IMG/VR virus record: IMGVR_UViG_2671180422_000005
Source: a virus
Lineage: Duplodnaviria > Heunggongvirae > Uroviricota > Caudoviricetes
Strand: one strand, 5' to 3'
Length of the DNA stretch: 19,981 nucleotides
The notes beneath the pieces are model-generated. The model saw only the letters and a program-made list of their open reading frames with translations, was not told where the DNA came from and made no database searches. Below are positions 1,285 to 14,134 of the stretch, piece after piece (position 1 is the first letter of the stretch; each line of letters begins with the position of its first letter). The translations under genes and the position numbers were made by a program.

Positions 1285-2070
1285 AATTCACAGGTGTTTT
1301 TTCCCATCCTGTGGTTTCCTTGGCGTTTTCTAGGTTTTTTCAGATAGTTGCATTTTTTTAAAAAGCATCCTAAGTTCGATCTCAGTGTCTATCTGGGGCC
1401 TATTTCTGTCCCATATATGCCCCAAAAAAACTCCCCAACAGATAAGTAGTTTTTTCATGGATTTATGCGTAAAATCAAGAACGGCTGGAAATCATTCAAT
1501 ACTCACACTATCGAAAAATTTACCAGCCAATCGCAGCACGTTCTTGCATAAGGCGTGTCTGCGGTTTTTCAACTATTCAGATACATCACTCCCATCACAT
1601 TCATTCCTCCGCATCAAAGGCATATAGGCTATATCACCTTGATATTTTTCTTTTTCAGATAAAAACTGTTATCTATGTATACTTTTAAACCCAATCCGTG
1701 TAGAGTCTCTGCATAAGATAGTTTGCAGTTGCCGCTTCAGCTTGCGCCATAAACCGCCTGATTTTTGCTGCCACCTGTTAGCATTCCTGTATACCTGAAA
1801 CGACAATGTTTATCTACGAACTTTAAGAACACCCAAGATAAAAATTGTCAACTATATCATATATAACACATTACTAATTCGAGGCTATATGAACAGCATA
1901 CTGATAATCACATCTCTCCTTATCATATTCAGCATTTTTAGTCATGCCCTAATAAAATTAGGGATTGGCATATCCAATAACCCAGACAAAACCGATGTAT
2001 AAGTCAACATATCCTGAATCAGACATACAATATCGCAATGAAAATCAATAATATTTTAAGGAATATCTTC

Positions 2071-3444: not shown

Positions 3445-5337
3445 ATCTGCCAGTGTTTTCTTGTTGGTTGCTGCACCATCCTCTTCCTGCAGGCTCGCCA
3501 GCAGTGCACTGAGATCCAGCTGCCAGCGGGAAATACTGATGCGCAGCGCCGCCAGCGCATAAACGAAGCAGTCGAGTGCCTCATTGCGTCGCTTTTTGCT
3601 GTCCCACAGTATTTTTTTCCTGCCATCCACCCATTTTTCGACCTGCTCTTCAGCAGTCAGCTGCTGCGCTTCGGTCAGATCAAAAATATCCGGGTTATTC
3701 GGGAAGTGAACGGCACCGGGAAGCGGTTCATCCCCTTCCGGCGTCAGTGTGAAGCGGTTATAAATCTGCTCTTTCGCGGTATCCGTACCGATTTCGGTAA
3801 GGTAAACCCCGTTTTTGTTTCGCTTACGTGGCATGCTGGCCACCGGCTTTCCGTAGACGGATGCCCCTTTAATGGGGATCACCCGGAACAGCCCATGTTT
3901 TTTCGAGCGTTCATACACAATGGTCGGGTCAATCCCGCCAGTATCCCAGCAGATACGGGATACCGACATTTCTGCACCATTCCGGCGGGTATAGGTTTTA
4001 TTGATGGCCTCATCCACACGCAGCAGCGTCTGTTCATCGTCGTGGCGACCCATAATAATCTGCCGGTCAATCAGCCAGCTTTCCTCACCCGGCCCCCATC
4101 CCCATACGCGCATTTCGTAGCGGTCCAGCTGGGAGTCGATACCGGCGGTCAGGTAAGCCACACGGTCAGGAACGGGCGCTGAATAATGCTCTTTCCGCTC
4201 CGCCATCACCTCAGCATCCGGACGTTCGCCGATTTTCGCTTCCCATGTCTCACCGAGCGTGGTGTTTACGAAGGTTTTACGTTTTCCCGTATCCCCTTTC
4301 GTTTTCATCCAGTCTTTGACAATCTGCACCCAGGTGGTGAACGGGCTGTACGCCGTCCAGATGTGAAAGGTCACGCTGTCCGGCGGCTCAATCTCTTCAC
4401 CGGATGACGAAAACCAGAGAATGCCATCACGGGTCCAGATCCCGGTCTTTTCGCAGATATAACGGGCATCAGTGAAGTCCAGCTCCTGCTGGCGGATGAC
4501 GCAGGCATTATGCTCGCAGAGATAAAACACGCTGGAGGGGTCATCCGGCGTCCATTTGAGGCCAAACGGCGTCTCTTTGTCGCCAAATTTAAGATACTGC
4601 TCCTCCCCGCAGTGCGGGCAGGCAACATGAAAACGCATAAAATGCAGGGATTCACTGGCTGCACGCTCAATCTGGCAGGTGCCTCTCACTTTGGGCGTGG
4701 AGCCACGGATGGACTTTGGCCAGACCGAGCCTTCAATACGTTTGTCGCCAAGGAACGTCGGAGAGCCTTCCTGTTCAATATCCTCATCAAAGGCAGCAAG
4801 TTCATCATAACCCGCCACATCCACCGACTTTTCACGGTAGTTTTTTGCCGCTTTACCGCCCAGGCACCAGAAGCCACGACCATTGGAAAAACGCTTCATA
4901 GTGAGCGTGTTATCCCGGTGCTTTTTGCCATACCACGGAGCCAGCGCCAGCAGCGACGGAATATCGCGGATGGTCGGCTCAACGTGGGTTTTCATAAAGT
5001 TCTCGGCATCACCATCCGTCGGCAACCAGATAAGGGTGTTGCGCTGCTTATGCTCTATAAAGTAGGCATAAACACCCAGCAGCATTTTGGAATAACCGAC
5101 ACGGGCAGACTTCACCACATTCACCTCACGGATGTAGTCGCTGCCCATCGCATTCATGATGGCCCGCTGAAAGGGCAGTGTTTCCCAGCGCCCTTCCTGG
5201 TATGCGGATTCTTTCGGGAGATAGTAATTAGCATCCGCCCATTCAACGGCGGTCTGTGGCTCCGGCCTGAACAGTGAGCGAAGCCCGGCGCGGACAAAAT
5301 GCCGCAGCCTGTTAACCTGACTGTTCGATATATTCAC
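3352..5337 (-). CDS. A: Terminase large subunit gpA-like, 661 aa, with the last about 10 lambda residues replaced by 30 unrelated residues
   Basis: Collinear with lambda gpA from [19 protein letters not shown] through ...[11 protein letters not shown]; diverges after coordinate 3445 into ...[30 protein letters not shown], which is tfa-derived DNA read in another frame. Confidence 0.9.
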
Positions 5338-7738: not shown

Positions 7739-7945
7739 CTTCATTTTCACTTTTTTAAATCCAACGACAGACGGCTGGCATTTAAGTATTGTGAAATATT
7801 ATCAAATGTAATCATCATTGATTTACAAAAGATACATTTTGCCCCGAAAGGATTCATGTCAGAAACATCAAAAGATGATGTTCTATACTGGGAACCATGA
7901 CAACACGGGCATCTAAAGTGAATATGGTTTGTAATATTGTCTACC

Positions 7946-8158
7946 TCAAAGCGCCACTACATGAACAGCGGCAGGACCTTTAGGTCCGTTCTCAATACCA
8001 AATTCAACTTCCTGATTCTCAGTTAATGTTTTGAAATCGTTGCTCTGAATTGCTGAGAAATGGACAAACACATCTTTGCTGCCATCTTTCGGCGTGATGA
8101 AACCAAAACCTTTTTCAGGGTTAAACCATTTCACTAAACCAGTCATTTTGTTAGACAT
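7946..8158 (-). CDS. cspI: Cold shock protein CspI (CspA family, 70 aa)
   Basis: [53 protein letters not shown]... with RNP1/RNP2 motifs; long leader upstream typical of csp genes. Confidence 0.95.
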
Positions 8159-8520
8159 AATTATTACCTTTTGAAGAAATTAGCCCTTGGGCAGAATGGT
8201 CCGAAAAAAAATATCAGAGAGAAAAACCAACAAGGAAATCTCAAGAGGTACAAATAATAAAATTATAACAATGACTGCTTCAGATAAATTTGTAACAAAC
8301 CAGAACACCATTAACGCATGATTAACCACCCATAGCAAGGATTACTTTTGTAAAGAAAAACACAGCAATGAAAGAATAGCTTTATTTATTAATAAAACGT
8401 GTCATTCTGATTAAGACCTTTTATCTTACCCTTAAGATTTCAGGAATTTTGGCTCATGGAAGAGTCCTTTTTATTTAAATTTTACATTCCGCGATGTAAA
8501 TGTTCCGATTTAATATTACC

Positions 8521-10548: not shown

Positions 10549-10829
10549 GAGATTGTGGTGCTTTTTGTGGGAGTCATCCACTTACGCACTTTGTTTTGCC
10601 ATGCCAGCAGTTAGCTTCTGCTGTAAAACTATTCATGCAGCAAACCTGCACTTCACCACAATGGTTAGCATACTTTTCCTGATTAAGATTTTGCCAAATA
10701 TGCTAGCCATTGTTTCATGTATTGGACCTCCTTACTTTTTATTAAAGAGATCCAATATTCACTACTCTGTCCGTATCTCTACTCAGGCATCAGCCTTCTT
10801 CGTTATCGTATACAGACGAGCGATGAATT

Positions 10830-11045
10830 TTAATCAGTAATGATGACATTTGCTGCTGCAGGACCTTTAGCACCACTCTCTATAGAGAAGGTAACCTTTT
10901 GACCTTCAAATAAGGTTCGATAATTATCATTCTGAATCGCAGAAAAATGCACAAACACATCTTTACTACCATCAACAGGAGAAATAAAGCCGAAACCTTT
11001 ATCAGCGTTAAACCATTTTACTAAACCAGTCATTTTATTTGACAT
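10830..11045 (-). CDS. cspB: Cold shock protein CspB (CspA family, 71 aa)
   Basis: [53 protein letters not shown]...; AAGGAA Shine-Dalgarno. Confidence 0.95.
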
Positions 11046-11345
11046 TCTACATTCCTTAACTTGAGCCTTTCGGCATAAATGGTTTGCATAACAGAAACGA
11101 CTTCGTACTTAATTGGAGAGACTCAAAGAAGGAATAAGTGAATAACACCTGAAATGAGAACTGCTTTAGTAAACTACTTCGTATATCGTCTGTTCTTCAA
11201 ACCGACGCAATCATTAACGCATAGTTGAACATATGAAGCAATGTTTATTTTAGACATCCAGCCATCTTCAACCCCATCAAAAAACTATAGCTTTCTTCAG
11301 GAACGTGTGTATAGTGCGCCAAGTTATCAGTATTAAGGAATTTTT

Positions 11346-11558
11346 TTGTCCCGTAAAATGACAGGAATTGTCAAAACCTTTGACGGCAAAAGCGGCAAGG
11401 GTCTTATCACCCCATCCGATGGTCGTATCGATGTCCAGCTTCATGTTTCAGCGCTCAATCTCCGCGATGCAGAAGAAATTACCACCGGATTACGCGTGGA
11501 ATTTTGCCGGATAAATGGTCTGCGTGGCCCTTCAGCTGCCAATGTTTACCTTTCATGA
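11346..11558 (+). CDS. cspF: CspA-family paralog CspF (70 aa), divergent from cspB
   Basis: [45 protein letters not shown]...; the frame opens with TTG at 11346. Confidence 0.85.
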
Positions 11559-11612
11559 GCTATATTAAAGCTTTAATTTCAGGCCCCATCGGATCACACA
11601 TGGAGAGTTTTT

Positions 11613-11702
11613 ATGAATAACCCCGTCTGTCTTGATGACTGGTTGATTGGCTTTAAAAGCTTATGCTGTACTTTGGCCGTAATAGCTCTGCTAATAATAT
11701 AA
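11613..11702 (+). CDS. Candidate 29-aa hydrophobic peptide ORF (unannotated)
   Basis: GGAGAG 5 nt upstream of ATG at 11613; hand translation [29 protein letters not shown] then TAA; not in the ORF track because of its length. Confidence 0.25.
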
Positions 11703-11844
11703 TAAGCAGACTCATTGTGTTTAGGGACATTGTACTGGAAGAAAACATTTTAAACATCAGGCAAATAACCAAGTCACCAGCTAAATAATAAGTTAACAGA
11801 CATGAGTCCCGGGATGAGATTCAACATTACCATTGCCCCATTTA

Positions 11845-11872
11845 AAGCACAAAACCCGCTCATCAGCGGGTT
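11845..11872 (-). terminator. tR'-like intrinsic terminator downstream of the Q gene
   Basis: Hairpin AACCCGCT-CATC-AGCGGGTT at 11853-11872; on the minus strand followed by UUUUGUGCUUUAAA. Confidence 0.55.
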
Positions 11873-11919
11873 TTCTACTTTTTCTTAACGTCGGGTATAC
11901 AAAGCCCATCGTTGAAAAA

Positions 11920-11948
11920 ATTTTATCCATATTTTTTGAAAAATGCAA
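11920..11948 (-). promoter_or_regulatory. Candidate PR'-like late promoter
   Basis: Minus strand reads TTGCAT, 17-nt spacer, TAAAAT (plus-strand complement at 11943-11948 and 11920-11925), about 40 nt upstream of the tR'-like hairpin. Confidence 0.4.
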
Positions 11949-11979
11949 ACATCATGTCGCCATCTTCAGCAAAAATCAT

Positions 11980-12732
11980 TTATCTCGTCACCTTCCTCAA
12001 TTGCGCTTCCGCGTATGCTTCTTCCTGCCAGCACTTTGTTACCAGTTTACCAATGACGTCCGCATACCCCTTATACCACTGATAATCGGTCAGGTCTGGT
12101 ACCAGCTTCTGGACATGACGTCGTGCCAGCGTGGTCGGTAAACGACTAAACCGGTTTCCATTACAACGCCCACAAATCTTATATACCGGTACGCCATGAA
12201 ACCGGGTTCTTTTTTCATCCAGAACAATCCCTTTACCCTTACACCCTCTGCACGCTGTGCTGGCTTCGCCCTTACCATGGCAATGCTGACATAGTTCCTT
12301 CACCCATTCTTCCTTGATTACAGATTCCCCGCGTCTGTAGTGTTTCACCACTTCGCGCAATACATTATAAAATCCCGTACCTGAACAATGCTCACAGCGA
12401 GCCTTACTTGCCGCAGACCTGGAGTAATCAGCAAAGGCAAAACTCACGAGGTAAGGAATAATCTGTAACCGGATTTCTTCACTCAATTTGTTCAATGTCG
12501 GGTTATCCAGTGCCATCGCGTAATTTAGCAGGCCTTCAATCGCAAACTGAGGGTCCTGAACACCAACTTTTGCCAGAAATAAGGCCAACCCAAGTGGTGC
12601 TTTCGACTGCACCATCCCCTGCGCTGCCATTACATCCGTAATTGTTAAACAACCGGTGCCTGTCGCTGGAGCGTCATCGCTCAATTTTGGAGATTTTGGG
12701 GAGTAATATTTTGGTAAGGCTTCAAGGTTCAT
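11980..12732 (-). CDS. quuQ: Late-gene antiterminator Q (250 aa)
   Basis: ATG at 12730-12732 (MNLEALPKYYSPKSPKL...); four CxxCxGxG repeats (CEHCSGTG, CQHCHGKG, CRGCKGKG, CGRCNGNR); sits directly upstream of the PR'/tR'-like module and lysis genes. Confidence 0.9.
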   Translation of the reverse strand: MNLEALPKYYSPKSPKLSDDAPATGTGCLTITDVMAAQGMVQSKAPLGLALFLAKVGVQDPQFAIEGLLNYAMALDNPTLNKLSEEIRLQIIPYLVSFAFADYSRSAASKARCEHCSGTGFYNVLREVVKHYRRGESVIKEEWVKELCQHCHGKGEASTACRGCKGKGIVLDEKRTRFHGVPVYKICGRCNGNRFSRLPTTLARRHVQKLVPDLTDYQWYKGYADVIGKLVTKCWQEEAYAEAQLRKVTR

Positions 12733-12745
12733 GCTCGTTCTCCAC

Positions 12746-13486
12746 TTACGCCAGTACGCCAATTGTCAGCGCGCGATCGATAAAACGAAATATCAGCTCC
12801 AGTTGGGAGCCATACTTATCTTCAAATGCCACTGTATCCGTATGCAGCTCGTTGTGATGCTTTCTGCACAAAGGCAACACAAAGAGATCATGTGCTTTTG
12901 TTCCCATTCCGCCCTGCCCGTGACCAATCAGATGATGCGGATCGTCGGCTGGCATACCGCAGCAAGCACACGGCTGTGTCTTAACCCAACGTGTGTATTT
13001 CTCCTTAACCCAGCGGCGACGTTTAGGCAGCTTCATGAAAGATTCCGGAGACTCTGGATCAACGGTGATGCTTACCACCGTCTTTTCCTGTGGTGATTTT
13101 TGTTGCTGGTGGGCGTAAGGCAACGGTGCAAGATTTTTTGTGCGTTGTTTCAATATGCTGGTGGCGGTCTGCTCTCCCGGTACGATGTCGCTTTCGCGGT
13201 ACACCGAGCAGATTTTTTCCGCTGGTAATCCCAGCGAACGACGCGATACAGCCTCAGGTAGTGCATCCACCACCTGATTGCAGACCGCCCACCAGGATAA
13301 TTCAGCCAAAGATAATTCCCGCTCCTGCGTACCGCTTATTGCGTGACGGATGACGTCAATCACCCATGCTGTCAGATTTTGTTGAGCAAGCAGCTCCAGT
13401 GATTCCGATGTCTGGTCACGCAGTTGGTTGTCGCAGTGCCAGCACAACACCATTGCGCCGGTATTCATCATAAACTTTGGGATCAT
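12746..13486 (-). CDS. ydfU: DUF968-family protein with HNH-like Cys/His motif
   Basis: 246-aa ORF; C-terminal CACCG...DPHHLIGHG...LPLCRKHHNELH; ATG at 13486 has GGGGAG upstream but lies 71 nt inside dicC; shorter than the K-12 YdfU length I recall. Confidence 0.75.
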   Translation of the reverse strand: MIPKFMMNTGAMVLCWHCDNQLRDQTSESLELLAQQNLTAWVIDVIRHAISGTQERELSLAELSWWAVCNQVVDALPEAVSRRSLGLPAEKICSVYRESDIVPGEQTATSILKQRTKNLAPLPYAHQQQKSPQEKTVVSITVDPESPESFMKLPKRRRWVKEKYTRWVKTQPCACCGMPADDPHHLIGHGQGGMGTKAHDLFVLPLCRKHHNELHTDTVAFEDKYGSQLELIFRFIDRALTIGVLA

Positions 13487-13643
13487 ACTGAAGCTCCCCG
13501 CCAGATGCCTCCTGTAGACGCATCGCGCGACCTTCGGGAACTAAATCCCCTTTCCAGCTATAAAGCGAAGCCAAACGAATACCTGCTGCTTGTGCAAGTT
13601 TTGTTTTTGAACCGAAATACAAAAGAGCGTCAGTTTTAAGCAT
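13416..13643 (-). CDS. dicC: Cro-like HTH regulator DicC (75 aa)
   Basis: MLKTDALLYFGSKTKLAQAAGIRLASLYSWKGDLVPEG... (HTH); divergent from dicA across an 83-bp operator region. Confidence 0.85.
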   Translation of the reverse strand: MLKTDALLYFGSKTKLAQAAGIRLASLYSWKGDLVPEGRAMRLQEASGGELQYDPKVYDEYRRNGVVLALRQPTA

Positions 13644-13657
13644 TTAAAACACCTTTA

Positions 13658-13677
13658 TTGTTAGTCATAACTAACAA
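13658..13677. promoter_or_regulatory. Operator-like perfect palindrome in the dicC-dicA intergenic region
   Basis: TTGTTAGT-CATA-ACTAACAA (8-bp arms); a second dyad TTAGC-ATTA-GCTAA at 13711-13724 overlaps the dicA ribosome-binding region. Confidence 0.5.
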
Positions 13678-13726
13678 GATAGATGTTAACAAAAACATAG
13701 TCAATACGATTTAGCATTAGCTAACT

Positions 13727-14134
13727 ATGGAAACAAAAAATTTAACTATCGGCGAACGCATCAGGTATCGTCGGAAAAACCTCAAACACACCCAAAGGTC
13801 TCTTGCTAAAGCCCTGAAAATCTCCCATGTGTCTGTATCACAATGGGAACGGGGTGATAGTGAACCTACAGGGAAGAACCTTTTTGCCCTCAGCAAAGTA
13901 TTGCAATGCTCACCAACATGGATTCTATTTGGCGATGAAGACAAGCAACCAACACCACCTGTTGAGAAGCCAGTTGCCTTATCCCCCAAAGAACTAGAGC
14001 TCCTTGAGCTGTTTAATGCACTGCCAGAATCAGAACAGGATACCCAGCTCGCCGAAATGCGAGCTCGAGTAAAAAACTTCAATAAACTCTTTGAAGAATT
14101 ACTAAAAGCCCGTCAGCGGACAAATAAAAGATAA
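13727..14134 (+). CDS. dicA: Repressor DicA (HTH, cI/C2-like; 135 aa)
   Basis: METKNLTIGERIRYRRKNLKHTQRSLAKALKISHVSVSQWERGDSEP... matches DicA as recalled. Confidence 0.95.
   Translation: METKNLTIGERIRYRRKNLKHTQRSLAKALKISHVSVSQWERGDSEPTGKNLFALSKVLQCSPTWILFGDEDKQPTPPVEKPVALSPKELELLELFNALPESEQDTQLAEMRARVKNFNKLFEELLKARQRTNKR

Follow-up and report, generated by a model that had tools for sequence, protein, structure and literature searches.

The short hydrophobic ORF between cspF and Q in the window, by which we mean the whole analysed stretch of 19,981 nucleotides from an IMG/VR virus record, is ynfS, an already known small-protein gene of E. coli Qin-type lambdoid prophages. Its translation at the native locus has been shown, by detection of a tagged protein and by initiation peaks obtained with three antibiotics. 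We hold with moderate confidence that ynfS is the distal cistron of a cspF–ynfS moron expressed in the lysogen, and that it encodes a weakly constrained peptide of marginal membrane competence. Because the gene already has a name and catalogue entries and its translation has been demonstrated, following up this ORF as such adds little.

Identity and translation of ynfS

The annotation of E. coli K-12 (NC_000913.3) names exactly this ORF ynfS (b4750, YP_009518791.1) and places it within the cryptic prophage Qin, the DNA of MG1655 being 100% identical to positions 11300–12000 of the window. Pfam family PF23697 (YnfS, 29 positions) matches the peptide over positions 1–29 of 29 with 80.9 bits (cut-off 27, E = 4.7e-23), so that the sequence falls within the family above the gathering threshold, and its location in a Qin-type prophage, 3' of cspF and convergent with the gene for the Q antiterminator, is that of the family. 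The UniProt name in the cluster look-up is Protein YnfS (YNFS_ECOLI), and in other genomes PGAP labels the product 'hypothetical protein' (WP_120795389.1), including in strain MIN11, the best-matching complete genome for the compared part of the window only (12900–14100). The earlier note had called the ORF unannotated, which is wrong in view of its presence in NC_000913.3, PGAP, UniProt and Pfam. The position, strand and length given there agree with the sequence, as does the GGAGAG motif 5 nt upstream, and the placement between cspF and Q is supported by the annotation and by the Pfam CSD and Antiterm matches of the neighbouring genes (Table 1).

K-12 YnfS has the same sequence, length and position between cspF and ydfT, and nothing differs at the locus itself. 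Elsewhere in the prophage the window is distinct from K-12 and lacks ~3.7 kb of MG1655 Qin (1643972–1647666), with a junction at 13459–13463. The deletion comprises the 5' part of ydfU, rem, hokD, relE, relB, ydfV, flxA, ydfW, ydfX and part of dicC, and the truncated ydfU now adjoins a Cro/CI-like gene; the hok and relBE toxin systems of the prophage are therefore absent from the window. Only one of 5426 complete genomes, that of the O89m:H9 strain MIN11, has this junction in common with the window. A second segment, 3446–5328 in the pinQ/tail-fibre area, remained unmatched in a megablast comparison with MG1655 Qin, though both sides match, and may contain alternative tail-fibre or invertible-segment sequence.

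Judged by sequence composition, an ORF of this kind is unusual, though not strikingly so. The window contains one ATG-initiated ORF of 20–50 aa that is led by a Shine–Dalgarno (SD) motif and has a GRAVY of at least 1.2, compared with 0.15 ± 0.39 in first-order Markov random sequences of the same composition, a difference that is suggestive and not decisive.

Direct evidence for translation comes from published work. Table 1 of VanOrsdel 2018 lists ynfS, flanked by cspF and ydfT, at coordinates 1642122–1642211 with 29 aa and an identical peptide; the gene was a previously unidentified positive in tetracycline-arrested ribosome profiling, and YnfS carrying a chromosomally encoded SPA tag, placed at its hydrophobic C-terminus, was detected by immunoblot (PMC6001520). 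With retapamulin and Onc112, strong ribosome peaks were obtained at the ynfS start codon, and the level of tagged YnfS was similar to that of most new small proteins but lower than that of YnaM (Weaver 2019, bioRxiv 10.1101/511675). Profiling with these two antibiotics and expression of a tagged product, both proposed in the earlier note as checks, were thus already in print with positive outcomes. On this evidence we rejected the possibilities that the ORF is an artefact or an RNA element. Another hydrophobic small protein of Qin, the 37-aa product of ynfT at 1889–2002 (+) of the window (MG1655 1632890–1633003), is identical to Rac YnaM; Table 1 of PMC6001520, a paper whose gene names differ from those in RefSeq, gives the gene its older name, ynfQ.

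Our literature search on ynfS found no functional study, and a 2024 survey (the y-ome paper) counts the gene among the uncharacterised genes of Qin (PMC11551758). A ynfS transcript was seen on tiling arrays, in a fluoride-down-regulated cluster (PMC10100675). As to the upstream gene, cspF mRNA is elevated in long-term stationary phase, where deletion of cspF causes no competitive defect (PMC7406224), and AZT induces several csp genes, cspF among them (PMC11228462).

The proposed cspF–ynfS unit and the late transcript

Table 1. Features of the cspF–ynfS–Q region in window coordinates
Feature	Position	Strand	Evidence and remarks
cspF, cold-shock-domain gene	11346–11558	+	Annotation; Pfam CSD, 77.8 bits; proposed first cistron
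Shine–Dalgarno-like GGAGAG	11602–11607	+	5 nt before the ynfS ATG; read from the sequence
ynfS (b4750) CDS	11613–11702	+	ATG start, 29 aa, TAA stop; ORF list, NC_000913.3 annotation, Pfam
G+C-rich hairpin AAAACCCGCTCATCAGCGGGTTTT with T-runs on both strands	11851–11884		Proposed bidirectional terminator; scan and folds
Promoter-like TTTGCA-18-TAAAAT	11920–11949	−	9/12 consensus matches; candidate pR' just downstream of Q
ydfT/quuQ, Q-type antiterminator gene	11980–12732	−	Convergent with ynfS; Pfam PF03589 Antiterm, 181 bits

The distance from the cspF stop codon to the ynfS start codon is 54 nt, and a consensus scan of this spacer found no promoter-like or terminator-like site. The first plus-strand terminator 3' of cspF in the terminator scan is the hairpin in Table 1, whose 10-bp stem at 11851–11874 is followed by CTACTTTTTC. 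Read on the minus strand, the hairpin has the tail TTTTGTGCTTT, and its stem is present in the folds of both strands. It is located ~45 nt downstream of the minus-strand promoter-like site (11949–11920). Each of the seven aligned variants keeps the hairpin and the promoter region, even phage Tritos, where ynfS is missing, and the hairpin is the least diverse intergenic segment (π = 0.013); the GGAGAG motif is invariant in all six that retain ynfS.

In the lambdoid layout, Q is followed by pR', a short leader and then tR'. The minus-strand promoter-like site is a candidate for the late promoter pR', and the hairpin would probably end the cspF–ynfS transcript on the plus strand and double as tR' of the late leader on the minus strand, an assignment of co-transcription, terminator and promoter that we read from motifs. 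As the consensus scan identified no cspF promoter, the autonomy of cspF–ynfS transcription is likewise something that we infer. Gene order on the minus strand runs from Q to cspB, essQ, ydfR, rrrQ and rzpQ, with the lysis genes and cspB lying beyond cspF; late transcription thus runs opposite to ynfS, which is antisense to it, as had been predicted from the sequence.

Taken together, the unit would be a short moron inserted between Q/pR'/tR' and the lysis genes and oriented opposite to late transcription, an orientation owing to which cspF–ynfS would be expressed in the lysogen independently of the late programme. The moron assignment is based on the gene order, on the unit's own putative terminator and on phage Tritos, which has no ynfS and retains Q, terminator and lysis genes, indicating that a unit at this place is dispensable for the phage. 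The locus would also be a neat case of one bidirectional terminator serving both a convergent moron and a phage late leader.

The antisense arrangement makes control of ynfS by the late transcript geometrically possible, and on induction Q-dependent late transcription across the gene could shut it off. A stronger version, in which YnfS has a genuine function as a membrane peptide specific to lysogeny and Q read-through switches cspF–ynfS off by antisense transcription upon induction, is in our estimation quite unlikely. Candidate roles for such a peptide would be those such as modulating a host envelope protein, superinfection exclusion or holin tuning. If true, the antisense shut-off would constitute a built-in lysogeny/lysis toggle for a moron.

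It is also conceivable, with a very slight chance of being correct, that the conserved element is an RNA or DNA feature of the opposite-strand late leader and that the ORF is incidental to it. Conservation at the nucleotide level without an excess of synonymous changes would fit such a feature, as would the location of the ynfS region, which on the minus strand comes directly after the tR'-like hairpin. However, the minus-strand fold is not unusually stable (z = −1.06), Rfam gave no match over 11559–11720, the Tritos deletion removes the whole segment yet leaves the terminator and promoter region in place, and translation of the plus-strand ORF has been shown directly (PMC6001520, bioRxiv 10.1101/511675).

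Two further observations concern RNA families in the region. The short leader at 11849–11915 (−), between the pR'-like promoter and the hairpin, has a weak, sub-threshold Rfam match, which may be due to chance, to isrK, a Salmonella prophage-encoded RNA (16.6 bits, E = 0.44, gathering threshold 50). The cspA thermoregulator 5' UTR family matches at full length at 10814–11206 (−) and 7919–8304 (−), belonging to cspB and cspI (158.8 and 112.8 bits), while the match at cspF is partial and sub-threshold (16.5 bits), which fits a cspF gene without a long cold-sensing leader.

Distribution, null alleles and constraint

Of 5426 complete E. coli genomes, 1412 (~26%) carry the ynfS region, mostly at an identity of at least 99% and in 116 cases at 90–95%, and so do phages PhiR42_1, PhiR63_1, HannyBb and 2H10. 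Among 80 IMG/VR loci chosen by CspF similarity alone, the region was found in every one and the frame was intact in 78. Natural null alleles do occur in IMG/VR: one locus (L222) has lost the start codon by an ATG>ATA change, and another (L165) carries a premature stop after codon 14. In phage Tritos (L007 2700–2934; window equivalent 11548–11806), a clean deletion that starts inside cspF and ends at ~11806, ~45 nt before the hairpin, has removed the 3' end of cspF together with the entire ynfS gene. Tritos retains the hairpin and promoter region as well as Q and the lysis genes, and the cspF–ynfS pair is therefore dispensable for the phage. Phage HannyBb has ~1.6 kb of extra DNA (L008 3186–4790) between the ynfS-side terminator region and a divergent Q gene; neither long ORFs nor tRNAs were found in this insert, and many tiny hypothetical genes are annotated there in the record.

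Searches for more distant relatives were carried out at several levels. With tblastn against phage records, near-identical copies of ynfS and one chance hit were obtained. A degenerate DDWLIGFK pattern retrieved E. coli prophages from IMG/VR and, among GTDB representatives (one genome per species, 185,579 species), E. coli and Shigella plus ~10 unrelated matches, our chance estimate being ~6. Phage records, IMG/VR and GTDB representatives thus yielded no ynfS relative outside Escherichia/Shigella. A ynfS-like ORF is absent 3' of the K-12 cspF paralogue cspH, where similarity ends at the csp stop codon, and also 3' of a Salmonella cspH/F-like gene. ynfS is strictly linked to cspF, which it follows at the constant distance of 54 nt, and restricted to Escherichia/Shigella prophages.

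Polymorphism was compared among 40 distinct haplotypes of the region 11250–12000. Nucleotide diversity π amounts to 0.022 in ynfS and 0.018 in cspF, compared with 0.047 in the spacer between them and 0.085 in the downstream flank; the low value of ynfS relative to both flanks could reflect some constraint or a recombination block shared with cspF. The kinds of substitution in the two genes differ markedly. In ynfS, eight segregating sites are nonsynonymous and one is synonymous, giving a pN/pS of ~2.2 that rests on nine sites in few and related haplotypes, whereas in cspF 11 nonsynonymous and 19 synonymous sites give a pN/pS of 0.20 (Fisher p = 0.008 for the contrast). Most of the compared loci were retrieved by a pattern that fixes codons 8–15 at the amino-acid level; the sample of 80 loci selected by CspF presents the same substitution picture. 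The major haplotypes are separated by N3K, A22T, V23L and I29M, of which the tail changes A22T, V23L and I29M are conservative and still hydrophobic. As read from these sequences, ynfS appears to be a young, lineage-restricted gene that evolves without purifying selection at the amino-acid level. Any function of YnfS is probably weak, accessory or conditional for this reason.

These data bear most directly on the main rival explanation, that ynfS is a translated but functionally neutral 'proto-gene' whose SD motif and ATG arose by chance in the cspF 3' region. On this explanation any effect would be exerted in cis, e.g. by ribosome occupancy altering the stability of the cspF 3' UTR or the access of Rho. 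The substitution ratio in ynfS, set against that in the adjoining cspF, points to neutrality, as do the start-loss and premature-stop alleles, the lack of homologues in our searches beyond Escherichia/Shigella and the viability of Tritos as an isolated phage. Start peaks that are strong yet accompanied by a comparatively low protein level point in the same direction, and a hydrophobic, SD-led short ORF is expected by chance in about one of every seven 20-kb windows. Neutrality does not readily account for the intact frame in 78 of the 80 CspF-selected loci, for a diversity that is 2–4 times below that of the flanks, for the conservative nature of the tail replacements between the major haplotypes or for the invariant SD motif. 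Because the sample is shallow and clonal, neutrality and a recent origin under selection are not separable in it; overall, we regard a neutral ORF as unlikely, with an appreciable minority chance.

Predicted membrane competence and comparison with known small proteins

The distal cistron of the proposed moron encodes a peptide with a polar, acidic head (residues 1–9, MNNPVCLDD) and a hydrophobic segment that extends from residue 10 or 11 to the C-terminus at residue 29 (GRAVY 1.47), in line with the shape described in the earlier note. The best 19-residue segment, residues 11–29, has a summed ΔG of ~−1.0 kcal/mol on the Hessa 2005 scale, and the same calculation gives −1.0 for CydX, −1.9 for MgtS and −2.0 to +2.4 for type I toxins, figures that are indicative only. 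The segment includes K15 and S16 and must extend to the very C-terminus. Judged by these values, the last 19–20 residues would be just hydrophobic enough to enter the inner membrane as one helix; such an insertion is plausible although marginal, and would be post-translational.

A small hydrophobic peptide encoded in a prophage invites comparison with type I toxins, whose shape the earlier note had recognised in YnfS. On such a view YnfS would be a membrane-damaging peptide, and an sRNA of its own or the late transcript would restrain it as the antisense RNA. In size, polar head and hydrophobic tail, YnfS resembles TisB, ShoB and ZorO, and the group formed by HokD of K-12 Qin, TisB, ShoB, Ibs, Ldr, ZorO and DinQ shares with it a length below 50 aa, a hydrophobic helix and a location in prophages or islands. 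The peptide is small, hydrophobic and predicted to target the membrane. MG1655 Qin also has the type I toxin gene hokD ~3 kb away, which is deleted in the window, and in one tiling-array study ynfS belongs to the NaF-down-regulated cluster 5 together with ldrB and ldrC (PMC10100675). Finally, a weak promoter-like site at 11723–11694 (−) would drive an RNA antisense to ynfS.

Several defining features of type I systems, by contrast, were not found. With regard to the antitoxin, neither a cis-antisense nor an adjacent sRNA was found: Rfam over ynfS gave no match at the gathering threshold or at E ≤ 10, and the MG1655 annotation contains no sRNA at or beside the gene. The site at 11723–11694 (−), a sigma-70-like match (TAAACA-16-TATATT, 9/12) located just past the ynfS stop codon and pointing into the ORF, was not counted as evidence for an antisense RNA, because the number of promoter-like sites in the region is within chance (6 versus 3.8 ± 1.8) and the second major haplotype differs from the first in both hexamers. 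In ordinary growth conditions, known type I toxins are not translated. ynfS is strongly initiated, and its tagged product accumulates in ordinary LB cultures without harm (PMC6001520, bioRxiv 10.1101/511675). The gene has neither its own promoter-like site nor a long structured leader, its SD motif is not in a significantly stable structure (fold z = −1.75), and neither paralogues nor repeats of it were found. YnfS matched no toxin family in Pfam, NCBIfam or PADLOC, a PHROGs search returned only a meaningless match at E = 0.12, and the literature mentioning ynfS yielded no report of toxicity upon overexpression. In addition, the C-terminus of YnfS is purely hydrophobic, whereas several type I toxins end in charged or aromatic residues. 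The type I toxin explanation therefore fails on antitoxin RNA, translational silencing and promoter; we consider it very improbable, and of the proposed toxin shape what holds is the small hydrophobic peptide.

YnfS may be a small membrane regulator. Like AcrZ, MgrB, MgtS, CydX and KdpF, it is of similar size with a single predicted helix, is tolerated by the cell and has a short cistron next to a larger one. The regulators named here occur in several genera with conserved sequence and have known partners, the neighbouring gene usually encoding the partner. Unlike them, YnfS is confined to Escherichia/Shigella, its segregating sites (8:1) show no constraint at the amino-acid level, and its neighbour CspF is soluble and nucleic-acid-binding; the cross-genus conservation and purifying selection typical of small membrane regulators are thus lacking in ynfS. 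Most characterised small membrane proteins act by binding a larger membrane protein. For YnfS, which would be tolerated and harmless at its native expression level, any role in trans would most likely be of this kind, rather than permeabilisation of the membrane or the formation of pores.

Closer in setting are the other small proteins of Qin, YnfQ/YmcF, YnfR (beside cspI), YnfT/YnaM and YnfU, which emerged from the same screens and the same prophage as short ORFs flanking csp-family genes, although they have no sequence similarity to YnfS. YnfQ and YmcF are encoded downstream of the cold-inducible cspI and cspG, whereas the cspF paralogue cspH has no ynfS-like ORF. YnfR is induced by cold shock (PMC6001520).

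The strict linkage to cspF, the restriction to Escherichia/Shigella prophages and the contrast in substitutions with cspF suggest that ynfS is a young, weakly constrained translated ORF and not a conserved regulator or toxin. The same three properties are useful when small proteins are to be picked for functional work.
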